Positions 5,588 to 64,000 are shown, numbered from the stretch's first letter. The stretch: 64,000 bases of DNA from an uncultured delta proteobacterium (GCA_963798485.1 CAWCTR010000004.1:96001-160000); one strand, 5' to 3'. Numbers and translations are program-made. The notes: generated by a model from the letters alone, not told the origin.

Positions 5588-5945
5588 ATGGAGATAAGCA
5601 AACGATGGTGTGTTGTAGTGCTTATGGCACTTTTAGCCCTGTGTTTCTCATCAAACCTCCTTGCGGTTGATATCGGCGTGGCCTGGGAGGGAAAGTCCGG
5701 GATGGCGAACAATGTCATAAAGGGCTTTGCCGAAGGGATCAAGGGAGCGGGCATCAATAATGAAAAAGATTCTGCCTTCGATGAAGTCGGTGATGCTCCT
5801 CATGGAAAAAGGACACCCTTCCGCCCCCATAGAAGAGGAAGAAACAAAAGCGGCCTGCATTGCATTCAAAATATCCTACCATGGCAAAATGTGTTCATCT
5901 GTGGATGAGATCCTGACTGCCGTGAAGGAAAATAAAGACTCTGAA
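5588..5945 (+). pseudogene. internally deleted, frameshifted and truncated ABC transporter substrate-binding protein
   Basis: Signal peptide + IGVAWEGKSGMANNVIKGF in one frame. Shifts at about 5760 to KKILPSMKSVMLLMEKGHPSAPIEEEETKAAC in another frame, which resembles a more central part of such proteins, then degenerates. Confidence 0.55.
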
Positions 5946-6025
5946 CGGGAACACATACAAGAAGCTCGGCCTTCAGATACCGCCCAATGTTCTGGGTGCA
6001 GCAAAGATCATTCAGTAAAAATTTT

Positions 6026-6053
6026 ACCCTCTCTCCTCTTCCGGGGAGAGAGG
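6026..6053. repeat. polypyrimidine/polypurine hairpin (BoxC/PIT-like)
   Basis: ACCCTCTCTCC-TCTTCCG-GGGAGAGAGGGT inverted repeat. Confidence 0.6.
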
Positions 6054-6167
6054 GTCTTTCTGTATCATATTGAATATACAAGCTCCATGTTTATCTAATA
6101 CATATTCTTAAAAGGCTTCGGCCCCACCAGTTTATTTCCAACTAGCCGTTATTTCACATAGAACGAT

Positions 6168-6298
6168 ATAGGGACAGCGCCTATTTTATATTGATAAAAT
6201 AGTGTCCATTTGGTAAGCTTTACGTATGACGCGAATTACAAGGGTTGTAGCCCCCATGGGACCGAAAAAGGAGGAGGTTAAATAGGCGCTGTCCTTAT
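6168..6298 (+). mobile_element. miniature element with 15-bp perfect terminal inverted repeats; probable deletion derivative of a RAYT/Y1 transposase gene
   Basis: GGACAGCGCCTATTT (6172-6186) / AAATAGGCGCTGTCC (6280-6294). Internal TTGATA-N17-TAAGCT promoter and 19-codon ORF MTRITRVVAPMGPKKEEVK (6226-6285). Confidence 0.65.
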
Positions 6299-6356
6299 TA
6301 TTCCCACAATGTGAGAACAATTTTCAAATAAAATAATATTATGGAAGGAGAAGTAT

Positions 6357-6923
6357 ATGGGCAAAAGGATGAAGATGGCAATTGTTTTGCTGGCGGCATT
6401 AATGGTGATCCCGTGCGGGTTGTTCGCAGCAGGTTCCTACGAGGGGCTGACGGCGCGGGTGGGCATAGGCCATTTGACCGACAGCGATATTGGCGATTAT
6501 GCAAAGATGCCTCTTGATATTTTTGTGGACTATGATATTCCCCTACCGACTGTCCATGAGGTGACCATACGCCCGAATATCGGCCTGATCTATATAAAAG
6601 GCAAAGATGAGGCGGATGGGATGACTATCAAGGAGATCCCTGTCATGGTCGACGCAGTGTACCATATCAGCCAGCCGGGCATGCAGGTGAGGCCGTATTT
6701 TGGAGCAGGCCTCGGGTTTATCCATGGAACGCTGAGCGGTACCGAAGATAATGATGGGAGTGAAACAAGATTTGCCTTTGGTTTTTTGGGTGGGGTGGAG
6801 TTCCCCCTGAGCCCGACCGGCAGCTTTGTAGCGCAGCTGGATTACATCTTGTGCCATTCTGATAAGTTGGATGTAGACATGGATATGTTCAATCTCTCTG
6901 TGGGGTATAAGTTCCGCTTCTAA
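6357..6923 (+). CDS. outer-membrane beta-barrel protein (OmpA/OmpW-like porin family)
   Basis: Signal peptide, RPYFGAGLG strand, amphipathic strands, C-terminal YKFRF BAM motif. Confidence 0.88.
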   Translation: MGKRMKMAIVLLAALMVIPCGLFAAGSYEGLTARVGIGHLTDSDIGDYAKMPLDIFVDYDIPLPTVHEVTIRPNIGLIYIKGKDEADGMTIKEIPVMVDAVYHISQPGMQVRPYFGAGLGFIHGTLSGTEDNDGSETRFAFGFLGGVEFPLSPTGSFVAQLDYILCHSDKLDVDMDMFNLSVGYKFRF

Positions 6924-41839: not shown

Positions 41840-43489
41840 TTATTGAATGGGCCTGATTCCGGAATCGCGGCCCAAACCGTCCAGGACAGCGCTGTCACGG
41901 TTATAGGGGTCTTTCTTGAAATAGACGATGCCGTCTTTGTCCACCTCCACCGTCACGTAGAGCAGCAGTATGGTAACGGGTCTGGGCAAGGTGAGTATCC
42001 GGGTTTTTCCTGATTCGGCCGCCTTCATGATGTTTTCCTGGCTCCACCTGGATGGATCGTCCAGCAGCAGCTCCGAGAGTTCGAAAGGCTTCTCCAGGCG
42101 TATGCATCCCGAGCTGAATGTCCTCTCCTCGCTGGCGAACAGCTCCTTATGCGGGGTGTCATGCATGTACACGGAATAGGGATTGGGGAATATGACCTTG
42201 ATGCGCCCCAGGGCGTTTCCGGCGCCAGGGTTCTGCCTGAGCGTGTAAGGAAAAGGACGCGCAGGGTACAACGACCAGTTGACGGATTTCGGATTCACCT
42301 CGGAGCCCTGATGGTTTAGAATCTTGAGGCCCTTCTTGTCGAGGTAGGAGGGGTCCTTCCGGACAGCCGGCAGGATGTCCTTTTTAAAGATAGTCGGCGG
42401 CACCACCCACGCGGGATTGAGCTCTATATGCGTGATCTTCGATCTGAACACCGGCGTGTCGCGATAGGGCTGCCCCACCTGTGCCCTGCACGACCATATG
42501 ACCTTGTTGTCTTTGTTGAAAGACACGCGGAACCCGGCAATGTCCACGAGGACGAATGGGTTCCCCGTGTCACGGAGCACCCACCTGGCGCGCTCGAGGT
42601 TCACGCGGATCTGGTCGATGCGGTCCTCCACCGGCACATTCAATGCTGCAAGCGTCTCTTTCCCCACCACGCCGTCTTCTTTCAGGCCGTGCCTGCGCTG
42701 AAAATGGATGACTGCCTGCCGGAGCGGCCCATCGAAGGTAAGGGGGTCTGTGGCCGGTTCCTGCAGGGCATCGGTTTTGCCCAGGCGCCTGCGCAGCGAT
42801 GAAACCCTCGGGTCGATCATGCCTTTTTTCAGGGCAGGGCCGGGGGGCACCGCTTCCCAGCCGCCGCTGCCCCTTATTGCGCGATACGCCCCGAGTGCTT
42901 CCTTCAGGCGGGAGTAGGACGGGTGGTTTATCTTCCATGCGTTGATTGTTTGTACAAGCGAGGGTGATGCGATGGTATGCTCGATGAAAGCGACCGGGTC
43001 CGTATCAGCGATCTTCCGGTCGAGGTTCCACTGAGGGTGATAGGTCAAGGGATCTTGCTTGCCGCAGTTGGAGTGGTTGGCGAGAAGGACAAGGGCATCG
43101 GTGAGGAGGAGGTCCAGCGATGCCGCGAGTGACGGGTCAAGGGACGTGCCTGTACGGGTCATGGACCACTGCCGCCGGATCTCTTGAAGGTGATAATCCT
43201 CAGGGTCGAGGCCGTCTTGGTAAGTATTCTCTATGGCACGAACGAGTTGCTCGATTGATTGTGCATTCACCCAGATCGGACGATATTCACGCCGTTTATA
43301 GAGCTCCGGAATGACGGTGAGAGACGAGATCCGGCAGGCTCCCACGCTGAAACCGCCGGTGATCTGTGTGCCGCCAAGCTTCTGTCGGATTATTGCGGCA
43401 ACGGCATCATCGGAGGTCTGGGCAAGGCATGTTCCGGTATAAATGAGCATGAAGCCCAGCAGAAAGGTAATGAGAATTCTCCGTGACAT
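41840..43489 (-). CDS. ldtD: L,D-transpeptidase (YcbB/LdtD family)
   Basis: Signal peptide, GLDPEDY, PG-binding FQRRHGL..DG.VG, NLERARW, NALGRIK, YMHDTP, SSGCIRL. Confidence 0.92.
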   Translation of the reverse strand: MSRRILITFLLGFMLIYTGTCLAQTSDDAVAAIIRQKLGGTQITGGFSVGACRISSLTVIPELYKRREYRPIWVNAQSIEQLVRAIENTYQDGLDPEDYHLQEIRRQWSMTRTGTSLDPSLAASLDLLLTDALVLLANHSNCGKQDPLTYHPQWNLDRKIADTDPVAFIEHTIASPSLVQTINAWKINHPSYSRLKEALGAYRAIRGSGGWEAVPPGPALKKGMIDPRVSSLRRRLGKTDALQEPATDPLTFDGPLRQAVIHFQRRHGLKEDGVVGKETLAALNVPVEDRIDQIRVNLERARWVLRDTGNPFVLVDIAGFRVSFNKDNKVIWSCRAQVGQPYRDTPVFRSKITHIELNPAWVVPPTIFKKDILPAVRKDPSYLDKKGLKILNHQGSEVNPKSVNWSLYPARPFPYTLRQNPGAGNALGRIKVIFPNPYSVYMHDTPHKELFASEERTFSSGCIRLEKPFELSELLLDDPSRWSQENIMKAAESGKTRILTLPRPVTILLLYVTVEVDKDGIVYFKKDPYNRDSAVLDGLGRDSGIRPIQ

Positions 43490-43527
43490 GGTCCCTCGAC
43501 ATCCCTGCTGAGCGCGTACTGCAGGGC

Positions 43528-44112
43528 TTACCAGTATCGTACGCGTCCCACATCCACGTGGACGAAGTCGGACTCCGGATAGTAACCCACCCCTCCACCC
43601 TTCAGGTCAATTGCTGAGCGCCGCAGTGATGACAGGCTGTATCCCGGCAGACGGATATCCGCCGCTTTCCCCTCCATGTGGAGGCTGTGACCGGCCACCC
43701 CGCGGCTGTTCTCGCGCAGGCGGGCGTTCGTGGCAGGGGAACGGTAGCCGGAGATTATGTGCAGCATCTCGTGAGACCCTGTGTTGTTGTGAAGATCATG
43801 GAGAAGATCGAGAAGGCCGGTGTCGATGGGCAGTATCTCTTCAGTGCGAAAGTCCCTGAGGATATGGTTGATCTCAGAGAGTGCATCAGAAACATATTCG
43901 CCTTTGATCCAGTACGCTGTCTTGAGTGTTTCTCCGGTGTGCAGGTTGTAGAGCGCCAATGTCCGTTCAGGCGATTGCGGTGCCTGTATGGCCCCCAGAA
44001 GGGTGCAAGGGAATAGGCTTGCCCCCAGCGCAAGCGCCCCTGCCTTCAGGAAATTGCGGCGGCATATTTTGTGTTCCAGAGCCTTGTGCACAACCGACGG
44101 ATGTTTATTCAT
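43528..44112 (-). CDS. mepK: YcbK/MepK family peptidoglycan endopeptidase (DUF882), Tat substrate
   Basis: RRNFLK Tat motif, NLHTGE, ISGYRSPATN, SLHMEGKAAD, GGVGYYP.SDFVHVD. Confidence 0.92.
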   Translation of the reverse strand: MNKHPSVVHKALEHKICRRNFLKAGALALGASLFPCTLLGAIQAPQSPERTLALYNLHTGETLKTAYWIKGEYVSDALSEINHILRDFRTEEILPIDTGLLDLLHDLHNNTGSHEMLHIISGYRSPATNARLRENSRGVAGHSLHMEGKAADIRLPGYSLSSLRRSAIDLKGGGVGYYPESDFVHVDVGRVRYW

Positions 44113-44360
44113 CGTTCCTCTTACCGGGGATAAATACCAAGCATGCCCATGCCTTGTCAACCCGATCGGCCCCGGTGGGCGCAGGCCCTAAGTTTTCTTA
44201 GATGTTCACCATCCCCATCGTCATCCAACGGCCGGGACTTAAGCCGGCGGATGAACCAAGCATAAGACCGGCATGTGGAGATGCGGGAACAGAGGAGGAG
44301 GTGTGCTTGGTTTCTCACCTCGATTATTCTGCAACACATTCCTTTCGAGCGTAGTATAAT

Positions 44361-45812: not shown

Positions 45813-46498
45813 AGTTTCGAAAAGGCCCGGTCTGATCCGTAGGGTGGGTGGAGCGAAGCGAAACCCACCAAGACTCTGTAGGAGCGGCTTCAGCCGCGAA
45901 TTCATCTTGAAATTGGGGACGGTCACATTCAAGGAGAGAGACAGGGTACCAAAGTCGCCTCCCTTTCAAGGGGAGGGACTTAGGTGGGGATGGGTTTAAA
46001 TCTCCCTTTCTCTTATGGCAGAGGGATTCGGATATTGGGTACTGGTTCAGATTATTCCCCTGATACGATGAAAAATAGAAACGTCCCCTTTTCATTTTTC
46101 TCAGTTTCAAAGATAAGGTGCATGGAATAACCGAGACCCTGCAGGCACATAACCGCGCCGCATTCGAGATCCTGACCGATGATACGGGCCACGGGGTACT
46201 GATGGCGGTATGATGTTTCGAAAAGGCCCGGTCTGATCCGTAGGGTGGGTGGAGCGAAGCGAAACCCACCAAGACTCTGTAGGAGCGGCTTCAGCCGCGA
46301 ATTCATCTTGAAATTGGGGACGGTCACATTCAAGGAGAGAGACAGGGTACCAAGGTCGCCTCCCTTTCAAGGGGAGGGACTTAGGTGGGGATGGGTTTAA
46401 ATCTCCCTTTCTCTTATGGCAGAGGGATTCGGATATTGGGTACTGGTTCAGATTATTCTCCTGTTAGGATGAAAAATAGAAACGTCCCCTTTTCATTT
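45705..46498 (+). repeat. tandem duplication, period 401 bp (45705-46097 and 46106-46498)
   Basis: Each unit = last 35 codons + stop of the 336-aa gene, two GTAG-type REPs, a PIT-like core and the 50-bp element (copies 3 and 4 at 46044-46093 and 46445-46494). Confidence 0.95.
45839..45899 (+). repeat. GTAG-family REP sequences
   Basis: GTAGGGTGGGTGGAGCGAAGCGAAACCCACC and GTAGGAGCGGCTTCAGCCGCGA; the latter recurs at 46279-46300 and 46609-46630. Confidence 0.8.
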
Positions 46499-46510
46499 CC
46501 CTTTTCATTT

Positions 46511-46568
46511 CAAAACTTCTGGACCCCCGTTTCGCTGGGGTGACACCATTTTTTGAGTTTTGCCATTG
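46511..46568. repeat. partial copy of the 21050-21165 MITE-like element
   Basis: CAAAACT...TGGACCCCCGTTTCGCTGGGGTGAC...GAGTTTTGCCATTG. Confidence 0.6.
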
Positions 46569-46856
46569 CCTCGAATGGCTGTAGTTCAGGTGGATCTTCA
46601 GCATAACTGTAGGAGCGGCTTCAGCCGCGAATTCATCTTGATGCCTCGTTCCAGCACTATGCCCATAAACGTAGGAGAACCGAGTACCCCTTTTTGCCGT
46701 TTTTATGGTACAATTAGATTAAGTAAAAAATGACAATGGATTGCGATGAAAGGGGAATGGGCATATTGTCAGTTCCAGAAAACATTCGGGCACTGTTTCT
46801 CCACTTTTTTCATTTAAAAAATGTATTCAACTGTAGTGAGCGATAAGGAATGTAAT

Positions 46857-47576
46857 GTGACTTCTGAACGTATTAGAAACTGGCCCGCAAAAGAACGTCC
46901 GCGCGAACGACTTCTTGCTGAAGGTCCTGATAGGATGACAGATGCCGACCTGCTCGCAATCATCCTTCGGGTTGGATTAGGGACGTTCAAAGTGGGTGTT
47001 CCAGGGAAGAACGCCTACGATTCTGCCCTCTCAATTCTGAGGGAATTCCGAGGGCTCCGCGGGCTTGACCGTGCCCGCATTCATGACCTGCTCAAAGTTC
47101 CCGGCCTTGGGCCTGCGAAAGTCTCGCAAATCAAGGCTGCATTCGAGCTCGGGAAACGTGTGTGTGCCGGAAAACTCACCGCCCCTGCTTTCGAATCCTC
47201 AAAGACTGTTGCCGACCACTTCCGCCCGCGCTTTACTGGAAAACGGCAGGAGATAGTCATTGCTTTGTTTTTGAACGGACAGAACCAGCTCCTTGGTGAG
47301 AAAGACATCACCGAAGGGACTCCGACGCAAGCTACCGTGTATATTCGCCGCATTCTGGAAGAAGCACTCCATGAATCAGCAGCGGCAATCGTCCTTGTCC
47401 ACAATCACCCCTCGGGCAATCCAGAACCCTCAGCCAGTGACGATGAGACGACGCATAGCCTCTTGCGCGCTTGTAAACTGGTGGGTCTGGTCCTGCTTGA
47501 CCACGTGATTGTTGGCGAGTCCGACCATTATAGCTATGCCGAAACCGGTCGGCTCAATGAACTTGAACCAGAATAG
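46857..47576 (+). CDS. radC: RadC family (UPF0758) JAB-domain protein
   Basis: ERPRERL, HhH GLGPAK, HNHPSGNPEPS..D, LLDHVIV; GTG 46857 with AAGGA RBS. Confidence 0.92.
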   Translation: MTSERIRNWPAKERPRERLLAEGPDRMTDADLLAIILRVGLGTFKVGVPGKNAYDSALSILREFRGLRGLDRARIHDLLKVPGLGPAKVSQIKAAFELGKRVCAGKLTAPAFESSKTVADHFRPRFTGKRQEIVIALFLNGQNQLLGEKDITEGTPTQATVYIRRILEEALHESAAAIVLVHNHPSGNPEPSASDDETTHSLLRACKLVGLVLLDHVIVGESDHYSYAETGRLNELEPE

Positions 47577-47587
47577 AAGGGTGCCAT

Positions 47588-49852
47588 ATGTCCAAGAAGA
47601 AAATAGAACCCCAACCTTATGCTAAGCCGGATCAGATCCAGATTCGCGGGAACCAGATTTACAGCCATGTCCGCAAGACATGGGTGCCGTTGACACCCGA
47701 GGAACGCGTCCGGCAGGATTATCTCTTTGTCCTGATTAACGAATACGGATATTCACTGGATCAGATTGATGAAGAGATATCGGTTACCAGCCGTGGCTCC
47801 GCACAGGCCCGCGCAGATTTCCTTATTTGGCGCACACCAGAAGCCAAGAAGCAACAGGAACACGCCCTGATTGTCATTGAATGCAAGGCCGACAACGTAA
47901 CCATCTCCTTGAAAGACTACGTGCAGGGAGCCAATTACGCACAATACGAACATGCACGGTTCTTTGTCACCCATAACCACCGCGAGACCAAGTATTGGAA
48001 AGTGGATGACAAACGGCGGATGCCTAACTACGATGAGATCGCGAACATTCCACATGCAGACGCAACAGACAAGGAAATCGACGAATTACTGGCACGTCTG
48101 AAAGTTTTCAAGGAGGACGAATTTGCTAAGCTGCTCCACGAATGCCACAACGTCATCCGCAATCGCGAAAAGCTCGACCCCGCAGCAGCCTTTGACGAAA
48201 TAGCCAAGATTCTCTTTGTGAAAGTCTATGTTGAACGGGAGCTACGGGCCAAACGCGCGCGGAGGAACCTCTTTAGCGTCGAGTATCTTGACGATCAACT
48301 TGGCAAGTACCCGCTCAACACGCTCTTTGGGCAAACCAAAGAGGCCTATGCGGATGACAAGATCTTTGAGGACGATGAGGAAATACGGCTCAAACCCGCC
48401 ACGGGTAGGGAAATCGTCAAGTTGTTGCAACGCTACAATCTTTCCGAGACCAGCGAGGATATCAAAGGTATTGCCTTTGAGCGATTTCTCGGTCGCACAT
48501 TCCGGGGCGAGATTGGGCAATTCTTTACACCGCGCACCATCGTCGAGTTCATGATTCACATGGTGGAGCCCCATGAGGAGGACGTGATTTGCGACCCCGC
48601 TAGCGGCTCCGGAGGGTTCTTGATTCGCTTCTTTGAGATCGTGCGGCAACAGATTTTGGCAGACGCCGACCGCCAGTACCAGGAATTCAAGACCAAGGTT
48701 CAGGCCGACAATAAGCTCTCACCGGACAAAAAGGCAACCATGCTCCGTGAGAAGTTCGACGCCATCCAGGCAACCCTTGACTCTAACAAACCCGGCTCTC
48801 GCCTGTGGAAGCTGGCCAACCGCTGCATCTTCGGCACCGATGCAAACGACCGCATGGCTCGCACCAGCAAGATGAACATGATTATGCACGGTGACGGCCA
48901 CGGCGGGGTGCATCACCATGACGGATTCCTGAATGTCAACGGTATATTCGAAAGCCGCTTCGACATCGTCCTCACCAATCCGCCCTTCGGAGCCAACGTC
49001 GAGCCTTCCGACGTGGTGCATGAATCTGATGCGACGGTGAGCCGCGAGGCTGAAAAACGCTATGCTGAAGAGTACGGCAAACTCTATGCTGAAGCCTTGG
49101 CTCGTGTACACGCCGCTGTGGGGAACCCCATCGCCAGTCTCTTTGAACTACCCAAAGGCAATGGCACCGAAAAGGAACGCAACAAACGGGTCAAGTCGGC
49201 CAAGATCAAAACTGAAATTCTATTCATTGAACGCTGTCTTTCCCTGTTGAAGCCGGGCGGGCGGCTTGGCATCGTTCTGCCCGAAGGGATCTTCAACAAT
49301 CCCTCACTTGTCTACGTGCGCGAATTCTGTGAAAACCGCGCCTTCATCCGCGCAGTTGTCAGCTTGCCCCAAGAGGCATTCTTTTCCTCTGGCGCAAGCG
49401 TAAAGGCATCATTGCTGTTCCTTCAAAAGTTCACTGAGGAAGAGCAGTCCGATTTCGATACCAAGCAGGCCGAAGCAAACGTCGAGGTGAAGGCGAAGCA
49501 TGCCAAAACCATCGCCACGGAGACCGCACGGCTTGAGGCAGCGATAGCGGTAGCCAAGGAAGCGCGGGATACCGAGAAACGAAAGACACTTCAAAAGGAA
49601 TTGGCCGACTTTGAGAAGCGAATGGCCGAGACCATCGCAAAAGAAACCCGCGCCTTGCTCAAAGAGCGTTTCCCGTATCCCATCTTTCTTTATGAAGCGG
49701 AGAAGGTGGGCATCACTGCCACAGGTGAACAGGACCAAAATGAGCTGGTTCCAAACGATAACCTGCCACAGGGAACTACAAAGACGTGCCTTGAGCTTTA
49801 TCAGGACTTCCGACATGACCCCCAAACCATTCTTTCTCACAGAGGCAACTGA
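47588..49852 (+). CDS. fused restriction endonuclease (HsdR-N-like PD-(D/E)xK) and N6-adenine methyltransferase
   Basis: TPEERVRQ, RADFLIW...IECK nuclease motif; GQFFTPR, DPASGSGGFL, NPPF, GIVLPEG. Confidence 0.92.
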   Translation: MSKKKIEPQPYAKPDQIQIRGNQIYSHVRKTWVPLTPEERVRQDYLFVLINEYGYSLDQIDEEISVTSRGSAQARADFLIWRTPEAKKQQEHALIVIECKADNVTISLKDYVQGANYAQYEHARFFVTHNHRETKYWKVDDKRRMPNYDEIANIPHADATDKEIDELLARLKVFKEDEFAKLLHECHNVIRNREKLDPAAAFDEIAKILFVKVYVERELRAKRARRNLFSVEYLDDQLGKYPLNTLFGQTKEAYADDKIFEDDEEIRLKPATGREIVKLLQRYNLSETSEDIKGIAFERFLGRTFRGEIGQFFTPRTIVEFMIHMVEPHEEDVICDPASGSGGFLIRFFEIVRQQILADADRQYQEFKTKVQADNKLSPDKKATMLREKFDAIQATLDSNKPGSRLWKLANRCIFGTDANDRMARTSKMNMIMHGDGHGGVHHHDGFLNVNGIFESRFDIVLTNPPFGANVEPSDVVHESDATVSREAEKRYAEEYGKLYAEALARVHAAVGNPIASLFELPKGNGTEKERNKRVKSAKIKTEILFIERCLSLLKPGGRLGIVLPEGIFNNPSLVYVREFCENRAFIRAVVSLPQEAFFSSGASVKASLLFLQKFTEEEQSDFDTKQAEANVEVKAKHAKTIATETARLEAAIAVAKEARDTEKRKTLQKELADFEKRMAETIAKETRALLKERFPYPIFLYEAEKVGITATGEQDQNELVPNDNLPQGTTKTCLELYQDFRHDPQTILSHRGN

Positions 49853-51238
49853 GTGAAAGCTACAAACCCAATTACACTCCGTGCCTTTGCTGTCTGGTGG
49901 AAGGATTTTGAACGCTGGGACGTAAAGTTTTTTTCGGCACACGTACGCAGCACTTATCCTGTCGTGCGGCTTGCTCCTTTAATTCATGAACACAGCGAAC
50001 GAGTAAAGCCTTTTGATTGCCCAGAAACAACATTTCGCATTTTGGGGGTCACGAACACGGGTGGAATTTTTCACGCCTATGATTCGCTTGGGAAGAAGAT
50101 CAAACAACCATACCAGAAGGTTGATGCCGGCGACTTTGCTTACAATCCTTACCGTGTTAATGTTGGTTCAATCGGCGTTGTTCCGACAGAGCTGGGAGGT
50201 AACTATATCAGCCCCGCCTACGTTGTTTTTGCCACTGACAAGGCAAGGCTACTGCCTGAATATCTTATCTTGATCCTGAAGGCCGATTGGTTCAATCCAA
50301 TGGTCAGGGCTGCGACAGCAGGCTCAGTCCGACAGAACCTAACTTTCGATCTTTTAGGCTCATTAGAGATTCCGCTCCCATCGCTGGCTGAGCAAAAGGC
50401 CATCGTCGCGCGTTGGCGCAAGGCGCAAGACGAAATAGTCGCTGTCCGAGGACGTGTAGTGAGACTGGAAGTGATGTTGCCTCTAATTGTTTATCAGGAG
50501 CTTGGGACACCGCCACCACTTGCAGAAAAGGCGACAGAAAAATACCTCATTATGTGGTGGAAAGATATGGAACGATGGAGCTTCACCTACTTGAGCCGAG
50601 CCAGTCAAGGTTTGTTGGGCTTCGCAAAATCGAAGTTCCCGATTGAACCGTTGGGAAACCATCTGATTGAAACCATGAACGGATATTGCATCAAACCCGT
50701 GGCAGGAACGACCCCGCACAAAATGCTAAAGTTGAACGCGCTCAATCCCGCTGGCCTGGATTTGACTGCAAGCAAATTCATCAAAGTCTCTGATCGTATC
50801 GCAGAACGATTCTCACTTCGTAAGGACGATATTTTGATTTGTCGGAGCAACGCCTACGAGTATGTCGCGAAGTGCGCGTTGGTTCGAGAAGATCAACCAG
50901 CATACTTATTCCCGGATATTATCATTCGGGCACGTGTGAAAACCACCGTCCTTCCTGAGTTTGTAGCCGAAGTCATTCAAACACCGCTGGGACGTTCATA
51001 TTTCCAAATCAACTCCCGCCGTGCGGTTGGTGGAATGTGGAAAATAAGCGCTGACGACATTCTCAATTTTCCTCTGCCAGTACCGCCACTAGCCGTACAA
51101 AAGCTGATAGTGGAACGTATAACGGCAGGCCGCGAAGAAATTACCCGCGAACGTGAAGCTGCCGACCGCCTTGCAAAAGAAATCAATGCAGAAATCGAAT
51201 CATTAATTCTCGGTACTAAAAGCTTACAGGAGTCATAG
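49853..51238 (+). CDS. hsdS: restriction-modification specificity subunit (HsdS-like, two TRDs)
   Basis: IPLPSLAEQKAIV and LPVPPLAVQKLIV conserved repeats; GTG directly after the REase-MTase stop. Confidence 0.88.
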   Translation: MKATNPITLRAFAVWWKDFERWDVKFFSAHVRSTYPVVRLAPLIHEHSERVKPFDCPETTFRILGVTNTGGIFHAYDSLGKKIKQPYQKVDAGDFAYNPYRVNVGSIGVVPTELGGNYISPAYVVFATDKARLLPEYLILILKADWFNPMVRAATAGSVRQNLTFDLLGSLEIPLPSLAEQKAIVARWRKAQDEIVAVRGRVVRLEVMLPLIVYQELGTPPPLAEKATEKYLIMWWKDMERWSFTYLSRASQGLLGFAKSKFPIEPLGNHLIETMNGYCIKPVAGTTPHKMLKLNALNPAGLDLTASKFIKVSDRIAERFSLRKDDILICRSNAYEYVAKCALVREDQPAYLFPDIIIRARVKTTVLPEFVAEVIQTPLGRSYFQINSRRAVGGMWKISADDILNFPLPVPPLAVQKLIVERITAGREEITREREAADRLAKEINAEIESLILGTKSLQES

Positions 51239-51239
51239 T

Positions 51240-52829
51240 ATGGCTCGAAGCATACGTTACCTTACATTTGAAGGTCAGTTTGAAAGCAGCGTACTTGGCA
51301 CGTTCCGCATCATCCGTGGCTTTGCCAATCTCAAAGACCTTGCAGAAGTCTCCGTGCCTTACGAGATGGAAGACAGTGATGGTTGTGATCAAGTCAAAGG
51401 TCAACAACGAAAGCTTGACCCTCAACATGCCGAGCGAATCAAACGATACCTGGAGAGCGGTGAACAGCGCTTCTTGCCTGAGGTAATCCTCTCCGTTCGT
51501 GCCGACTTGACAGAAACCTCGGATGAAAATTTCAAATTGATAGGAGTTGAGAGCAAAGGTACAGAAGATGGCATCACAATTAACCGACGATGGAAAAGTC
51601 ACAATATCCGCGTTCATCGTATGTCGGTTGATCGTAAGAAGCTCTCCGAGATTCGGAGCAAAAAACTCATTCGTCGTGTGGATGGAAACCACCGCCTTGC
51701 ACTTGCCGAAACGCTAAAAGACGATCCGAGCATCCCCACGAAATATCTGGCTCCGTTTTGCCTTGTTCTCTTAGGCCCAACTGGGGAAGCTGCGGATGAC
51801 TATTCCGAGTCGCTGATTTTCCATACCATAAATAGTACCGCACTTCCTCTGGAATCTGAGCATGCACTGAAACTTATTCTTGGACAACACGCAGATTACG
51901 ATATGACGCCGGGAAAAGAATTTGCCTTCAGCCCTGACCTACATTTTACACGTCTTCTTAGAGATGGCCTTTTAAGGCTGCCGGAGCCAGCGCAATCACG
52001 GCTCGGGAATCATCCTTTGACATGCTTGCGCAACGCAGTACGTGGTCTGTTGGAGATGGATAAAAATGTAGCCAAAGATCTCCCCTCACTTCGCGAGTAT
52101 TCGAAGACATTACTTGCAGCCTTGAATGACATTGTGACACGTTTGGAACCTATTCGACCTTCGCTTTGTCAGGCAGACTTTTTTATCGAATTGGCGGCCC
52201 GTGTCTGGAAAGGAACACCGGACAGTGATAAACATTCTAAACGCGTAAATACAACTGTTGCCTACCTGGAACAGTTGGCCGGTTGGCTGGGGCAGGATGG
52301 ATTGGTAGAATTGAATGAAAACCAGTCACTTAGCAAACAGCTGCTTGATATATTCAACGCAGTTAGGATGCGGATTCCTAGAAGGGTTTTCCTCGCTCGT
52401 TGGTATCCCACGGCAAGCGACGGTGAGGAATTCGAGAAGGCTAAACTACGTCTCACGCAGATTCGACAGGCTCTCAAAGAACTAGAGAAGGAGATGGGAG
52501 CTCAGCTCGAACTCGTAGACCTGGGGACGCAAACCGGCACTACTTTTCCAATTCACACCAAGATGTACAATGCTATTGCATCAGCTGACATCATCCTCGT
52601 GGACCTGACCGGGGTACGCCCAAACGTATGCGTGGAAGCTGGTTTCGCACTGCGAAATCACGAAAAGAATCGGCTCATTTTCATCTTTCAGCCAACAAAA
52701 AAATATAAAACTGTTCCCTTCGATTTGAATACATACCGATATGAGTCTTTCAAGGATACGGGAGAAATCCCTGAAAAGATAAAGCCCCATATCACCGCAA
52801 TTCTTAGCAACGCAGCAATAGGTTCTTGA
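51240..52829 (+). CDS. DGQHR/DndB(ParB)-like domain fused to a C-terminal TIR/nucleoside-deoxyribosyltransferase-like domain
   Basis: QRKLD..H...I..YL, FLPEVIL, RVDGNHR, IFHTIN; C-terminal VFLA, IASADIILVDLTGVRPNVCVEAGFA, VPFDL. Confidence 0.75.
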   Translation: MARSIRYLTFEGQFESSVLGTFRIIRGFANLKDLAEVSVPYEMEDSDGCDQVKGQQRKLDPQHAERIKRYLESGEQRFLPEVILSVRADLTETSDENFKLIGVESKGTEDGITINRRWKSHNIRVHRMSVDRKKLSEIRSKKLIRRVDGNHRLALAETLKDDPSIPTKYLAPFCLVLLGPTGEAADDYSESLIFHTINSTALPLESEHALKLILGQHADYDMTPGKEFAFSPDLHFTRLLRDGLLRLPEPAQSRLGNHPLTCLRNAVRGLLEMDKNVAKDLPSLREYSKTLLAALNDIVTRLEPIRPSLCQADFFIELAARVWKGTPDSDKHSKRVNTTVAYLEQLAGWLGQDGLVELNENQSLSKQLLDIFNAVRMRIPRRVFLARWYPTASDGEEFEKAKLRLTQIRQALKELEKEMGAQLELVDLGTQTGTTFPIHTKMYNAIASADIILVDLTGVRPNVCVEAGFALRNHEKNRLIFIFQPTKKYKTVPFDLNTYRYESFKDTGEIPEKIKPHITAILSNAAIGS

Positions 52830-52860
52830 TTATTGAGAAAACTATTTAGGATAATCGGAT

Positions 52861-52927
52861 AATCAGGGTCAGAGTCGATTTAACAGCTTATTTATGTTTA
52901 TGCAGACCCCTCTTGATATTCGACTAA
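52861..52927 (+). repeat. ~60-bp direct repeat, copy 1 (copy 2 at 55851-55910)
   Basis: AATCAG(G/T)GTCAGAGTCGATTTAACA..TTATTTA...GCAGACCCCTCT.GATATTCG.CTAA. Confidence 0.85.
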
Positions 52928-53443
52928 CATTCGGGCTACATCTGCAGCTGCATCTCGTGCCTGTTCAATTGGGATATGTGGCTTGATCTCATTTACGCGC
53001 ACAGCACACTGTTCGGTATTCCGAATCGCTTCTTCCTTGCATACATACAAAGCAGTGGATAGGCGCTCCAATGCCACGACGCCCTTCGCACCGAGGTTTT
53101 CCACAATAAATGCCATGTCGGGATCATACTGCTGAACAGCCCCAAGGTATTGCTGATAAAAACGAATCCCTGCCTCGGAAACGGATAAGTTCGGGCCATA
53201 GGGGTAAGGGTTTATCTCAATGGTGAGATAGCCGTCCGCCCTCATTTCTGTGAGTTCATCCCGTAATTCGAATGAGAAGGGGCCGTGTTTGTATAAGACA
53301 AATTCATAATCCACGGGTGTATTGGTTATTTCCTTGAGAGAAAACATAGCCTTCTGGATATGAGTTTCTCCGCACCAACTGCCTTTATTACGAAGAGACT
53401 TGACCAGATCAAGCAAAATGGCTCTGCGGACAGACTGATCCAT
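52898..53443 (-). CDS. YwgA/SocA(Panacea)-like winged-helix protein
   Basis: GETHIQKAMF, YEFVLYKHGPFSFEL, LERLST; ATG 53443 four nt after the HD gene stop, GGAGG RBS. Confidence 0.7.
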   Translation of the reverse strand: MDQSVRRAILLDLVKSLRNKGSWCGETHIQKAMFSLKEITNTPVDYEFVLYKHGPFSFELRDELTEMRADGYLTIEINPYPYGPNLSVSEAGIRFYQQYLGAVQQYDPDMAFIVENLGAKGVVALERLSTALYVCKEEAIRNTEQCAVRVNEIKPHIPIEQARDAAADVARMLVEYQEGSA

Positions 53444-53447
53444 CTTT

Positions 53448-54785
53448 CTACCCTCCCCCTGATTCAATAATACCACTTCTTTCGCTTTCAAGCCACTGCT
53501 TTGCTTCATACTCCAACTCTCTCTTGATGAAGATGTATTCGGTTTTCACCACAGGGATCTGATTGAGAGTTTGTGATAGAGAGCTGGATGATTCAATTCT
53601 CCCATCTTTCATGAATACCGGGAAATCAATAGATTCACCCTTCTGGGATGGGCTGTCGAACCTGATATTCTCAGGACCATATTTTCTATACGCTGCATCT
53701 TTTATCAATGTTGCCGCCTGTTGGTTCTTTTGAAAGTCGGTTGGATTCCGTTCATACAACCTCTTGTAGTGCTGTCTCTTGATAATCCGTGCAGCATGAA
53801 CTGACCCTGGCATGCCTTCGTCAAAAGCAGCTTTCCTGAGCTCAACTAAAATTTCATGATCAGTGGAGGATAAGTGGCGATCAGGTTCCGTAGGGAATTT
53901 GCCACCAGTAAGCATATCCACAAGATAATCTTTCAGGTGGATATCATAAATCCTTCGGACAGGGTGAAAATATACCTGTGAATACATGAAGTATCTTGCC
54001 AGCAGAAGGGCTTCTGCGGATTGGAGTCCGCCTGCTTCAACCCCAAGAGTAGGTTCTTTTGACTTTTCCTGTTCTCCACCTGAAGGTGGCGGTGTAAGTA
54101 TGCGCATCGTATCTATCAACCGATAATGATCAAATCTGCCGTAAGCAACACCTATGTGATATGAGTCCCTCAACAAATAATCCATCCGATCAACACCGAA
54201 TGCATCACCTACAATGATCTCAGAAAGAATAGTCTCCCAGTCATCAAATGTAAGGTCAGGGGCCTTCTGTTTTCCAATGGCCAGTTTGACGATATCTTCG
54301 GCCCTCAATGGTGGGGTCATCCGTTGCCAGATCTCCTTCAGCTCATCATTCATAATGAGCTCTCGGGTTAATTTCTCATGATCCCAATTCTCAGGAAGCA
54401 ACTCCTTCTCTGCTGCATGGGAAAACGGCAGGTGTCCTATGTCGTGACATAATCCAGCCATTCGAAGTGCTTTCCTCCAGTATGCGCGTACCTCGTCCTT
54501 ATTTAATTGAGGAAAAAGATCCCTTACTTCGGGCAAGAGATGATTCGGATGGGTAACAATATCAAATACCCTTCCGGCAAGTTCCATGACCCCCAGCGAG
54601 TGTTCGAATCTCTTATGAGAAGCGCCTGGATACACAAGATATGTGAGCGCTAACTGATGAATGCATCGTAATCGTTGAAATGGTCTTGAATCAAGGACAT
54701 CCCTTTCTTGATCATCTAACTTGATGAAGGTGTGGATGGGATCCCTGATTTCATGGAAGATCTTTCTCAAATCCTCCTCCATCAT
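53448..54785 (-). CDS. HD-domain dNTP triphosphohydrolase-like protein (SAMHD1/YwfO family)
   Basis: RDPIH, FQRLRCIHQL, RFEHSLG, HDIGHLPFSH, DRMDYLLRD, RYFMYSQVYFH. Confidence 0.9.
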   Translation of the reverse strand: MMEEDLRKIFHEIRDPIHTFIKLDDQERDVLDSRPFQRLRCIHQLALTYLVYPGASHKRFEHSLGVMELAGRVFDIVTHPNHLLPEVRDLFPQLNKDEVRAYWRKALRMAGLCHDIGHLPFSHAAEKELLPENWDHEKLTRELIMNDELKEIWQRMTPPLRAEDIVKLAIGKQKAPDLTFDDWETILSEIIVGDAFGVDRMDYLLRDSYHIGVAYGRFDHYRLIDTMRILTPPPSGGEQEKSKEPTLGVEAGGLQSAEALLLARYFMYSQVYFHPVRRIYDIHLKDYLVDMLTGGKFPTEPDRHLSSTDHEILVELRKAAFDEGMPGSVHAARIIKRQHYKRLYERNPTDFQKNQQAATLIKDAAYRKYGPENIRFDSPSQKGESIDFPVFMKDGRIESSSSLSQTLNQIPVVKTEYIFIKRELEYEAKQWLESERSGIIESGGG

Positions 54786-56762: not shown

Positions 56763-57629
56763 TCATGACTCATACGGGCGTGTCCCCTTGCACTTGGGGT
56801 ACGTGGAACAGCCGTAAAATTTGTTGCCGGGTGTCGGGCCTTTCTTTGCTATGCGCAGTACCATCTTACTGCCACACAAGGGGCACAGAGGGGGCACGGG
56901 GTTTTCGCTGCGGACAGGTGTCTTCATGACTGCCGGTTTATTTTTAGGGAATAGTAATACCTTGTTTTTGATTTCACCGATCATTGCATGTAGTTCTTTG
57001 CCGTTCACGAGTTCGATGGGGTTGCCCCTGGCAAAATCGAGAGCCTCCTGGGTAAAGGTGCCGGAGGTGATGACGATCCCTCCCGATGCCTTCTTGTCGT
57101 AGACCACTCCAAGCAGTTCCCTGACTATGATTACGCCCACGCTCTCCATCTTCCAGTGCTTGCACTGGACAAAGATGGTTTCGCCGTTTTTGTTCAGCAC
57201 AAGGTCCACCCCGCCATCGGCCCCACCGCCACCGGTCTCGGTGATGGTGTAGCCCTTTCTTCTGTATGCCTCGCCCACGAGCCGCTCGAAATCCTGCCAG
57301 CTCAGTGATCGGAGTGTTTCCCTATTCTTCTGGTTATTGAAGAGAGCGATCCTCTTCTTGCTCCTGAATAAATAATTCAAGAAGGAAAGGGCGGCCATGG
57401 AGAGGAAAAAGAGCAAGGCCGAGTTGGCCAGGTATGGGCTTACCTGTGCCAGGCTGTTGAGGAAAAGATTGGGTGGAATGCCATTGGAACCTGGTGCTGC
57501 ATGTTGATTACCCCATATTGCCGGAATCGCAAACTTCAATAATCCATAACTGAAAATAGCAAGGATGACGCTGACCCACCACGAAGCATCGATCAGGTCA
57601 TCAGCCAATGAGGTGTTTCTTCGAGCCAT
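56763..57629 (-). CDS. membrane-anchored Mrr-family restriction endonuclease with C-terminal topoisomerase-type C4 zinc finger
   Basis: Two N-terminal TM helices; LSWQDFE, GADGGVDL, VQCKHW, TSGTFT..A, IELVNG; CPLCG...FYGCSTYPKC. Confidence 0.88.
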   Translation of the reverse strand: MARRNTSLADDLIDASWWVSVILAIFSYGLLKFAIPAIWGNQHAAPGSNGIPPNLFLNSLAQVSPYLANSALLFFLSMAALSFLNYLFRSKKRIALFNNQKNRETLRSLSWQDFERLVGEAYRRKGYTITETGGGGADGGVDLVLNKNGETIFVQCKHWKMESVGVIIVRELLGVVYDKKASGGIVITSGTFTQEALDFARGNPIELVNGKELHAMIGEIKNKVLLFPKNKPAVMKTPVRSENPVPPLCPLCGSKMVLRIAKKGPTPGNKFYGCSTYPKCKGTRPYES

Positions 57630-59879: not shown

Positions 59880-60938
59880 TCATGATGCCTTGACCTCTTC
59901 TTTTTTTAGCTGTTCTTCGGGGGTTTCTGTGCTCAACAATTCCATATACTGTTTTTGGTCGGACACGATATTGTAGACATATCTCTCTGTCGTTGATACC
60001 GCTGCATGACCAAGTACATTCTGGATCACCTGCAGCGGAACATTTTGGACTGCCATATACGAAGCAACATGACGCCTCAAGGCATGAAATCCCATCTCTT
60101 TAATTCCCGCCCTCTTGCACAGTCCAGCTAGAAAGCGACGTCTCATGGTGAATGGCTTTCCATAATGCGGAGATCTATCATCTATCACCACGAACACATA
60201 GGGTGTGTCTTTGACAGGTCTTGCTTTCCACCACCATTCGAGGGATGTCTTCAACTCGCTTGTCATATCCAACCATCGGGCTTTCAATGACTGGTCTCGT
60301 GTCTTTCGTGTCCATAGCCGGAGCTTCCCATTAGGGAAATCGATGTCTTCCCATGTCAATCTGAACAGCTCACTTTTTCGTGCCCCTGTGTGAAGATATG
60401 TCAGGAGCATTGTCCATTCATCGGGCTTGCATACGGCCTTGAGTTTCAAGACATCACTTCTCACGGGTGTGAATTGAGGCTTTCGGTCATGTGCAAACTT
60501 GGGGACCTTTGCAGCAGGACAGTCTTGAACATCTAAATAAGATCTTGCATAGGCCCACATTGCAAGGATGTTTTTTCTGTCAACGTTGGCGGCATTTGCA
60601 CTGCGCGCTTGCTTCTGCTTTGTCAGGTAATCCAGGCACATTTTCGGAGTTATGTGATTGACAGGCTGGTCCTTTCCCCATTCTGCAAGAAGTCGGTTGC
60701 ATAGAGCTAATTTTTCACCAACAGTGCGTGAGGAAAACCGTGCAGAATACTCCATGTACTCAATCGTCAGAGAACCTAAGACCAAGCCGTTTTGCTCGCG
60801 CTGCTTGATCTGTTTCCGCTCTTCGAGCTCCCACTTGACGGCGGACCGGCTCGTGGCGAACCCTCTTTTGGTGGCAACCCTCTTGCCGAGGATCTTTACC
60901 ACAGCTCTCCATGTCCCATCTTTTTCCTGATAAGGCAT
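59880..60938 (-). CDS. int: tyrosine recombinase/integrase
   Basis: HTGARKSE, TRK, FHALRR, LGH, TTERY catalytic residues; adjacent to att. Confidence 0.95.
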   Translation of the reverse strand: MPYQEKDGTWRAVVKILGKRVATKRGFATSRSAVKWELEERKQIKQREQNGLVLGSLTIEYMEYSARFSSRTVGEKLALCNRLLAEWGKDQPVNHITPKMCLDYLTKQKQARSANAANVDRKNILAMWAYARSYLDVQDCPAAKVPKFAHDRKPQFTPVRSDVLKLKAVCKPDEWTMLLTYLHTGARKSELFRLTWEDIDFPNGKLRLWTRKTRDQSLKARWLDMTSELKTSLEWWWKARPVKDTPYVFVVIDDRSPHYGKPFTMRRRFLAGLCKRAGIKEMGFHALRRHVASYMAVQNVPLQVIQNVLGHAAVSTTERYVYNIVSDQKQYMELLSTETPEEQLKKEEVKAS

Positions 60939-62504: not shown

Positions 62505-64000
62505 ATGGCGTGTTATCATATCCAGGTTAAAATAATCAGCAGGGGCGGAGGCAAATGCGCCGTTTCCGCCGCTGCATACCGCTCGCGGGATAAGCTCTAT
62601 GATGAACGCCTGGACATGACATTCGACTATACGAAGAAGAAGGACCTCGCCTATGAAGAGATCCTCCTTCCGGAAAATGCACCCGAAAGACTGAAAGACC
62701 GGCAGACTCTCTGGAATGAAGTCGAAAGAGTAGAGAAGCGAAAAGACGCACGCCTCTCCCGGGAAGTCGAGTTAGCTCTTCCCAAGGAACTGAACTTCGA
62801 ACAACAGGTAGCTCTTGTAAAAGAATATGCTCAGTCACAATTCGTGGATAAAGGAATGATAGCCGACATCTGCATCCACAAGAGCGATAAAAATCCTCAT
62901 GTTCATATCATGCTTACAACTAGAGAAGTTACCAGTGATGGCTTTGGTAAAAAAGTAACCGCATGGAATGATAAAGCAGAACTCCTGAAGTGGCGGGAAG
63001 AGTGGGCGAATATCCAGAACAGGAAATTGTTGGAAGCAGGTCACGATATCCAGGTTGACCATAGGAGCTTTGCAGATAGAGGCATTGACCTTGAGCCACA
63101 CATCGAAGATCGGGATAGCAGCAAAATACCTGCCCAAAGGCTACCTCCACTTGCAAGAAACCCGAGGACTTGATCGCCTCGAAGAGTACCAGAGAATATG
63201 CAGAGAGAATGGGGAACGGATTATCAATGATCCGGCAAAAGCCTTGAAGCTCGTTGGACATTACGATGCCGTGTTCAAGCGGGAAGACATCATGGATTTC
63301 GCCTTCCGACACAGCGCTGATGCAGATCAGTTCAACCGTGTTTTCTCTGCCCTTGAGAACTGCCAAGAGCTTGTCAGAGTCGGGAAAAATGAGAAGGGAG
63401 AAGACCTGTTACTCAACTCGTACCATGGTGCTGAGCGAGAGGACCATGCTCAATAATGCGCAGAAAATGAATTCTTCAAATGGCCACCTCTTGGAGCAAA
63501 ATATCATCAATCAGACTGCGAAGAATTACACAATGAGTAAGGAGCAGGAAACAGCATTCAGAAACATAGTGGAGAGTGGAGATATCTCCGTGATGATCGG
63601 TCGTGCTGGAACAGGGAAAAGCTATACGCTTGGTGCAGTAAAAGAAGCATATGAAGCAGGAGGATATCGGGTAAGAGGCTTGCACTTTCGGGTATTGCAG
63701 CAGAAGGCCTTCAGAATGAAAGCGGGATCGAAAGCACAACCATCTTCAGGCAGTTGGAGGACTGGGAAAATGAGAGAAATGTACTCAGCAAAGACCAGAT
63801 CCTGGTGATCGATGAAGCGGGTATGGTCGGTACCAGACAGATGCATAAGATCTTGGAACACGCTCATGAAGCAGGAGCAAAAGTGATCCTGGTGGGAGAC
63901 AACGAACAGCTCCAGTCAATCGAAGCAGGAGGATCATTCCGAGGCATCATCCAGAGGACCGGATACGTAGAACTGGCAGAAGTAAGAAGACAACATGTCG
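62505..64000 (+). pseudogene. traA: Ti-type TraA: MobA/MobL (MOBQ) relaxase fused to RecD-like helicase; three frameshifts; runs off the window
   Basis: MACYH, AAAYR, LWNEVE, LALPKEL, NPHVHIM, VDHRS; GRAGTGKS Walker A, VIDEAGM, LVGDNEQL. Frame changes at about 63098, 63408 and 63682. Confidence 0.85.

Follow-up and report, generated by a model that had tools for sequence, protein, structure and literature searches.

The 64,000-nucleotide window analysed here, which is the whole stretch CAWCTR010000004.1:96001-160000 of an uncultured delta proteobacterium (GCA_963798485.1), carries a cassette of four open reading frames (ORFs) on the plus strand. These encode a RadC paralogue, a fused nuclease-methyltransferase (RM), an HsdS-type specificity subunit (S) and a 529-aa protein, designated G4, that joins a ParB-like N-terminal domain to a C-terminal domain resembling TIR and nucleoside deoxyribosyltransferase (NDT) proteins. 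A first-pass annotation had described four coupled genes separated by gaps of 11, 0 and 1 nt; the ORF coordinates confirmed this layout, and its domain calls for all four genes agreed with our translations and family scans. Position 46857, at which that annotation began the cassette, is codon 13 (GTG) of a radC frame whose ORF opens at 46821, and the hsdS gene itself starts with GTG. The cassette and its domains are as follows.

46821..47576, plus strand: cassette-borne RadC paralogue (251 aa), a facultative first gene, with UPF0758_N/HhH and RadC JAB domains (Pfam, NCBIfam)
47588..49852, plus strand: RM subunit (754 aa), an N-terminal PD-(D/E)xK nuclease and a gamma-type N6-adenine methyltransferase (Pfam, PADLOC)
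47696..48052, plus strand: nuclease domain, RM residues 37-155, with D77, E98-x-K100 and QxxxY (Pfam HSDR_N_2, E = 1.7e-21)
48455..49447, plus strand: methyltransferase catalytic region, RM residues ~290-620, with the S-adenosylmethionine motif CDPASGSGGFLI and NPPF (N6_Mtase, motifs)
49853..51238, plus strand: HsdS-type specificity subunit (461 aa) with two target-recognition domains (two Methylase_S stretches)
51240..52829, plus strand: G4 (529 aa), with ParB-like (DGQHR-type), helical and TIR/NDT-like parts
51240..51884, plus strand: G4 N-terminal DGQHR-type ParB/Srx-like domain, residues ~1-215, with Q56-R57, D148-G-N-H-R152 and F194xxxN198
51885..52364, plus strand: G4 helical middle, residues ~216-375, family-specific (AlphaFold model)
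52365..52829, plus strand: G4 C-terminal TIR/NDT-like domain, residues 376-529, with D455, N462-V463, E466, G468 and D495
52635-52637, plus strand: codon of G4 E466

The RM subunit combines the Pfam families HSDR_N_2 and N6_Mtase. Its translation contains ARAD (D77), IECK (E98, K100), QGANY, the motif CDPASGSGGFLI and TNPPFGA, and across 46 aligned homologues each of these nuclease and methyltransferase motifs shows at least 95% conservation; RM identity is 55-89% across phyla in the genome loci. The protein scored 767 bits against the MTase_I model (PDLC03018) of PADLOC, which was used as a library of hidden Markov models (HMMs), the comparison being one of protein models at the level of single genes. 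In S, Pfam detected two Methylase_S stretches, and the PADLOC model Specificity_I (PDLC03148) spans residues 16-451. S is highly variable among loci (22-62% identity), as expected of swapped target-recognition domains. No helicase domain was detected by family scans in the four cassette genes or their neighbours, and the HsdR family TIGR00348 had no match in the source genome, which is 97.5% complete. Promoter and terminator sites in 46000-53600 were no more numerous than in shuffled sequences.

The closest solved sequence relative of RM was RM.BsaXI (E = 3e-26), which aligned only over methyltransferase residues 280-622, the nuclease domain of RM lying outside the alignment. For the methyltransferase part, this match agrees with the type IIB-like layout that had been proposed. 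As in the type IIB enzymes BsaXI and BcgI, a nuclease-methyltransferase fusion is accompanied by a separate S with two target-recognition domains and by no ATP motor; the cassette differs in that its nuclease is of the HSDR_N_2 type and that PADLOC files RM under type I methyltransferases. To our knowledge, no ParB-glycosidase partner is known for type IIB enzymes. RM-S appears to be a self-sufficient, motor-less restriction-modification (R-M) enzyme of the type IIB kind. By analogy with BsaXI, which a passage of PMC11997821 describes as assembling as (RM)2S, it probably forms an (RM)2S complex. In a metagenome-assembled genome of Caulobacteraceae (L022:7103-9997), a single 964-aa ORF that precedes G4 spans both RM and the specificity part, which are thus naturally fused.

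The translation of G4 contains GQQR, RRVDGNHRL, FHTIN, DLTGVRPNVCVEAG and VPFDL. Its N-terminus matched TIGR03187 (DGQHR) with an E value of 4.2e-10 and 39.8 bits, under the curated cutoff of 58.85, and PF14072 (DndB) with 17 bits (cutoff 29.1); among 35 G4 relatives, the DndB model matched 29 and the DpdB model 17. Neither clade of the family, the two sharing 28-31% identity, shows any variation at Q56-R57, at DGNHR (with N in place of the Q of DGQHR) or at F194...N198. A QR pair, DGQHR and FxxxN are the signatures that part of PMC4619093 gives for DGQHR-type domains. With the AlphaFold model of residues 1-375 (predicted local distance difference test score, pLDDT, of 86), the top Foldseek rows were ParB-CTP, Noc and KorB, all of them weak (E = 0.037 or worse, prob 0.99, TMt 0.56), and VIA-align placed PadC, Pnob8 ParB and KorB at Z 5.7-5.8 for the N-terminal domain. 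Mainly on its sequence, we read the N-terminus as a ParB/Srx-type domain, in line with the DGQHR/ParB-like call made at first. The middle region was modelled with a pLDDT of mostly 80-95 and matched nothing more specific than generic helical structures (Z at most 6.4); W349 within it is invariant. A Foldseek search of the whole protein against PDB returned meaningless rows only, and a profile built from the family alignment found no match among PDB sequences.

The C-terminal domain was recognised by the PADLOC TIR effector model PDLC00733, both in G4 (E = 9.8e-12) and in all 35 relatives (best E = 8e-14). PF10137, the TIR family of CAP12 and Pycsar, matched weakly in 31 of the 35 relatives (13.2 bits for G4, cutoff 24.7). 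In a divergent sister clade, PF05014 (Nuc_deoxyrib_tr) matched 5 of 5 members (best E = 3.7e-5, 24.3 bits); in the close clade it matched 4 of 35. In structural comparisons by VIA-align, for which a full-length model with a pLDDT of 81 was available, the domain matched MilB (Z 11.2), the RPS4/RRS1 TIR (Z 10.8) and TIR-STING (Z 10.3-10.6) (17-18% identity), followed by the NDT 7o62 (Z 9.5) and RCL (Z 9.4). D455, N462-V463, E466, G468 and D495 are invariant across clades sharing 28-31% identity, and the motif marks E466 as the putative equivalent of the catalytic Glu. The TIR/NDT-like C-terminus with an intact Glu, as annotated initially, was supported by the models, by the invariance of the Glu and by structural matches, which receiver domains equalled.

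The same domain also occurs without the rest of G4. It was matched alone in 19 more genomes of a 401-genome sample of the phylum, in ORFs of ~190-420 aa; of two such ORFs that were scanned, one is a fusion of SLFN_AlbA_2 with an NDT-like domain and the other has an NDT-like match only. Two ORFs of ~290-300 aa (L085:427-1293 and L086:994-1908) have a G4-homologous C-terminal domain, one of them with an SLFN_AlbA_2 N-terminus and the other with an N-terminus that matched no family. The SLFN_AlbA_2 fusion indicates that the effector domain is reused with other nucleic-acid-binding heads, a pattern typical of sensor-effector defence proteins.

G4 belongs to a large family. A collection of proteins clustered at 90% identity yielded 510 relatives at E ≤ 0.001, nearly all 520-540 aa long and without a name, and at E ≤ 1e-30 a two-clade G4 profile retrieved 252 cluster representatives (50% identity). 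No relatives were found in a phage collection. In genome contigs we located 55 G4 loci, spread over many bacterial phyla and one archaeon; the architecture is not peculiar to the window. Where at least 3.8 kb of DNA preceded G4, 46 of 48 genome loci had the order RM-S-G4, a recurrence beyond chance; the two departures are one rearranged and one decayed locus. RM and S usually overlap by 4 nt, and between S and G4 there is mostly either a 4-nt overlap or a 1-nt gap. In metagenome contigs, distant G4 clades (22-31% identity to the window's G4) had an RM homologue upstream in 48 of the 50 loci with at least 4 kb upstream, again in the order RM-S-G4, and these RM homologues were equally distant (27-32% identity), the nuclease domain included. 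The linkage of homologues to RM genes, which the first-pass annotation had named as a check, was found in both collections. Identities of RM and G4 to the window's proteins were correlated (r = 0.91 over 60 non-independent pairs); the two proteins co-diverge deeply.

The two metagenome exceptions (L117 and L118, 1014-8371) are near-identical contigs with the order HsdM-HsdS-HsdR-G4, in which G4 is a distant member of the family. In a further contig (L108, 112-3997), a distant G4 overlaps the end of HsdR. Every G4 relative with readable upstream DNA lies downstream of restriction genes. We rejected the idea that G4 substitutes for HsdR, because it follows HsdM-HsdS-HsdR or HsdR in these contigs and because RM has its own nuclease.

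In the same 401 genomes, RM homologues were counted at a threshold of E ≤ 1e-80. These occurred in 11 genomes, including the source, and in none of six genomes of the same family. Among the 10 other RM-bearing genomes, two have an intact G4, one has the start of G4 at a contig end and two have a truncated or broken G4; no G4 match was found in the remaining five. Of the five loci without a match, one is RadC-RM-S-Fic and another RadC-RM-split S; a third has RM-S and three unassigned genes, a fourth has RM-S where the contig begins, and the last is a deletion derivative. A G4 profile search of the same sample detected full-length G4 only in RM-bearing genomes. Dependence is thus one-way: no G4 relative was seen away from RM genes where upstream DNA could be read, whereas RM-S also occurs without G4, and the candidate effector gene is embedded in an hsd-type operon for which it is optional.

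Several loci showed further variation. In L071 (G135:C16, 626-11139), which contains RM-S without G4, a DUF2726 plus zinc-ribbon gene precedes RM-S, and three same-strand genes (448, 340 and 1208 aa) follow it; they belong to no Pfam family except for a weak DNA_pol_B_2 match in the last, and may be an alternative accessory module. Decayed cassettes were seen at three loci (L073, G316:C41, 3706-5640; L074, G264, 5906-6454; and G360:C14, 180616-185737), in the forms of RM residues 1-234 fused to S within one ORF, G4 cut to 182 aa, and RM and G4 both interrupted by stops. On a plasmid of Leisingera thetidis (NZ_CP109788.1; L090:6984-9227), a 747-aa ORF annotated as N-6 DNA methylase resembles the RM methyltransferase up to NPPF in its first 337 residues (32% identity) and G4 residues 107-519 in its residues 340-741 (23% identity; IDGNHRL, NVYHEIGY). 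We set aside the idea that this ORF is a fusion proving a partnership of RM and G4: its methyltransferase alignment ends just after NPPF and its G4-like part is without the first ~100 residues, so it more probably arose as a chimera by deletion within a distant cassette.

When all flanking ORFs were clustered, RadC was the sole further recurrent neighbour; RhuM-like and Fic genes were found at five loci each. In 17 of the 44 genome loci with enough DNA, the gene immediately before RM is RadC, so its inclusion in the cassette, as first annotated, holds for a subset of loci. The window's copy is full-length, with UPF0758_N and RadC JAB, and scored 211.9 bits against the NCBIfam RadC equivalog (cutoff 180). 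We considered whether it was a housekeeping gene beside an inserted island, and rejected this. The same genome has a second radC (contig C7, 333333-333947, minus strand), 32% identical to the cassette copy, which is the version common to same-genus and same-family genomes (27-33% identity) and the orthologue of their single RadC. Because the C7 protein is the copy shared with relatives, the cassette RadC is cargo; cassette RadCs in other phyla are 43-84% identical to it. The extra RadC is a facultative fourth component.

The cassette is mobile and horizontally acquired, as its patchy distribution (RM in 11 of 401 genomes and in none of the six of the family), a cassette GC content of 0.46-0.53 against 0.57-0.59 in the flank, and the mobility and defence genes nearby show. 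It also looks recombinant. The closest relatives of the window's RadC and RM (84% and 89% identity) are in locus L049, whose G4 is only 29% identical, and the closest relative of the window's G4 (78% identity) is in L001, whose RM is 73% identical.

We compared the cassette with known systems. Among PADLOC models no named system was found for it, only the generic MTase_I, Specificity_I and TIR effector, in agreement with the earlier remark that the architecture was not a named one. Searches of the full-text literature, to which subscription journals and supplementary files do not belong, found no description of a ParB/DGQHR-TIR/NDT architecture with RM. The RM and S subunits resemble MAD2 and MAD5 (NCBIfam and PADLOC mad2/mad5 matches) of the methylation-associated defence system (MADS, mad1-8), which parts of 10.1101/2023.03.30.534895 and PMC13662399 describe as using N6-methyladenine (m6A) for self/non-self discrimination with separate effector modules. 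Membership in MADS was rejected, since MAD2 scored 281.4 bits against a cutoff of 720 and MAD5 33.8 against 400, and the other six mad genes are absent. The cassette has four same-strand genes and unrelated neighbours, no MAD3/4 or MAD7/8 ATPase-nuclease modules and no kinase, and its effector is G4.

G4 itself shares features with several kinds of proteins. Like GmrSD, BrxU and SspE (DUF262 + DUF1524 HNH), it has an N-terminal ParB/Srx-like domain with motifs of the QR, DGQ(Q/H)R and FxxxN kind (as given in part of PMC4619093), followed by a C-terminal (candidate) effector, and a linkage to systems of DNA modification (as given in part of PMC3632139); BrxU ranked ninth in the Foldseek list for the N-terminal model. 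Unlike them, G4 has a TIR/NDT-like effector, a family-specific helical middle and the motif DGNHR, and it is tied to an m6A-type methyltransferase and S, whereas they stand alone or with phosphorothioation or BREX genes. No Pfam match to the DUF1524 HNH nuclease was found in G4 or its 35 relatives. The TIR effectors of CBASS and Pycsar (Cap12 TIR-STING, PycTIR) resemble it in the TIR effector model, the weak PF10137 match and the conserved Glu; however, the G4 cassette has no cyclase or cyclic-nucleotide sensor domain, and the sister clade is more NDT-like. With DndB and DpdB, of the phosphorothioation and 7-deazaguanine systems, G4 shares the DGQHR signature, weak HMM matches and partnership with DNA modification, but the cassette has no dnd or dpd genes and G4 has the additional TIR/NDT-like domain.

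PrrC/EcoprrI offers a precedent for the gene arrangement: its gene lies within a type Ic hsd locus and encodes an anticodon nuclease, a latent suicide effector that is optional for restriction. As in that locus, a candidate effector lies inside a restriction operon, and by analogy a guard logic would fit the one-way dependence of G4; PrrC, however, is an ABC-ATPase-like anticodon nuclease, whereas G4 is ParB-like and TIR/NDT-like. R-M-linked ParB-like sensor-effector proteins and suicide effectors embedded in R-M loci are kinds already known, and the G4 cassette would be a variant of both.

We tentatively favour the reading, to which we give somewhat less than an even chance, that G4 is a facultative N-glycosidase of abortive infection that either guards the HsdS-guided restriction enzyme or depends on it. 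RM-S would protect host sites by methylation and cleave DNA that lacks this mark. The ParB/DGQHR-like domain of G4 would probably serve as a nucleotide-dependent switch, a DNA binder or both, reporting either that restriction had failed or been inhibited, or the presence of its DNA products. This switch would release the TIR/NDT-like N-glycosidase, and the predicted activity, destruction of NAD+ or nucleotides, would abort the infection. Such an abortive effector fits two proposals: PMC3632139 proposes that R-M-linked proteins in which a toxin domain is joined to a ParB-like DGQHR/DUF262 domain are programmed-cell-death modules, and PMC3710099 proposes NDT domains as effectors of abortive infection (Abi).

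R-M is the commonest bacterial defence, and a back-up that acts after it has been evaded or inhibited is known from very few cases, of which PrrC is the classic one. The G4 family is large and uncharacterised, occurs in many phyla, is almost always wired to RM genes and combines two modules that are important elsewhere in immunity, here a probable nucleotide switch of the ParB type and a putative glycosidase of the TIR/NDT type. If G4 is indeed a restriction-coupled suicide or nucleotide-depleting effector, it would provide a general, testable example of layered defence in one operon, and a new regulatory head for TIR-like enzymes. The cassette, with three or four genes, is small enough for direct testing in E. 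coli.

Several observations weigh against this reading. All family HMM scores for G4 are below curated cutoffs (TIGR03187, DndB and PF10137; for PF05014, at most 26.7 against 28.8). The structural backing for the ParB fold is weak, at a Foldseek E value of 0.037 and a VIA-align Z of 5.7-5.8, and the receiver domain of ComE (Z 11.5) fits the C-terminal domain as well as TIR or NDT does, so that the fold alone is no proof of a glycosidase; where it leaves the function undecided, the conserved TIR/NDT-type motif points towards a TIR/NDT-like enzyme. G4 clades that are ~29% identical sit behind RMs that are 67-89% identical to the window's RM, and few residues beyond the two active sites are conserved between G4 clades. 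This shuffling of clades and the sparse conserved residues argue against a specific conserved protein interface between G4 and RM. RM, with an intact nuclease of its own, is also found in the absence of G4, which could therefore be an unrelated hitchhiker like Fic or RhuM at some loci.

A stronger form of the favoured reading, which we regard as unlikely, makes G4 a new class of restriction-coupled effector, in which a ParB-like switch would read the state of the HsdS-guided enzyme on DNA and activate the N-glycosidase. The signal might be an engaged unmethylated site, obstruction of the enzyme by a DNA mimic, or the short pieces excised by a type IIB enzyme. Restriction would then be hard-wired to NAD+ or nucleotide depletion or to DNA base excision, and RadC would be a further regulatory part.

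G4 might instead act on DNA. ParB/DpdB-like loading near sites marked by RM-S would let the NDT-like domain cleave or exchange bases at the 2'-deoxyribose. G4 would then be no small-molecule toxin; it would be either a restriction glycosylase that makes foreign DNA abasic at the attacked positions or a second activity of DNA modification. The matches of 17 and 29 of the 35 relatives to DpdB and DndB, which both partner DNA-modification machineries, and the strict linkage to the DNA-recognising RM-S genes are consistent with this, as are the best scores of the divergent clade with nucleoside 2-deoxyribosyltransferase and the position of MilB, an N-glycosidase, among the top structural matches. 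We know of no NDT- or TIR-type enzyme that acts on bases in polymeric DNA, and the closer clade matches the CBASS-type TIR effector model, whose relatives hydrolyse NAD+; moreover, with the RM nuclease intact, a second restriction chemistry is not needed. Even with the suggestion of Anantharaman et al. (2013), in PMC3710099, that NDT domains of Abi-like proteins might attack DNA, we consider this quite unlikely.

Functional uncoupling was also weighed, with G4 as an independent, selfish or defensive stand-alone Abi toxin hitchhiking 3' of RM operons. RM-S is a unit without G4, Fic and RhuM-like genes take similar positions, recombination has shuffled G4 clades relative to RM, and G4 is found behind canonical type I operons too. 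Against such an origin stand the near-obligate linkage in genome and metagenome loci, the conserved S-G4 spacing, the deep co-divergence of RM and G4 and the finding of no full-length G4 in phylum-sample genomes without a detected RM homologue, which leave it a slim chance. The least probable alternative is that G4 is a DndB-like regulator that binds DNA and a nucleotide ligand and tunes the methyltransferase or nuclease, its C-terminal flavodoxin-like domain being a ligand-binding or receiver-like module: DndB is described as an ATP-modulated negative regulator in part of PMC10853773, receiver domains fit the fold equally well and half of the RM-S cassettes are without G4, as expected for a modulator, but the invariance of Glu466, Asp455, Asn462 and Asp495 across ~29%-identity clades points to catalysis, no receiver-type phospho-acceptor signature matched in Pfam in G4 or its 35 relatives, the domain is fused to AlbA_2 heads elsewhere in an effector-like pattern, and G4 closes the operon, in translational coupling with S.

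On the left of the cassette, the L,D-transpeptidase and M15 peptidase genes at 41840-44160 are the only genes within 20 kb common to two same-genus genomes; shared synteny ends at 44160, which places the left border of the island after this position. On the right, the cassette is faced by two convergent minus-strand genes that have 62 nt in common. The 203-aa product of 52898-53509 matches the C-terminal part of PADLOC DarG (E = 2.5e-10) and PDC-M19A, and the 445-aa product of 53448-54785 has HD and HD_assoc_2 domains and a weak match to a dGTPase model. By tblastn, the 203-aa and 445-aa HD ORFs were found beside the cassette in none of the 55 loci, and the pair may be a separate two-gene defence candidate. 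Farther to the right, 56763-57629 (minus strand) encodes a 288-aa protein with an Mrr_cat nuclease and a C-terminal Top1-type zinc ribbon; this protein has matches to PDC-S02 and to models of type IV methyl-directed restriction, and L003 and L032 have comparable genes close to the cassette. A tyrosine integrase is encoded at 59880-60938 (minus strand), and two short plus-strand ORFs (62505-63173 and 63254-63808) with MobA/MobL relaxase and AAA_30 matches look like broken pieces of a relaxase. Integrase and relaxase pieces are possibly remnants of an integrative mobilisable element that bounds the island.

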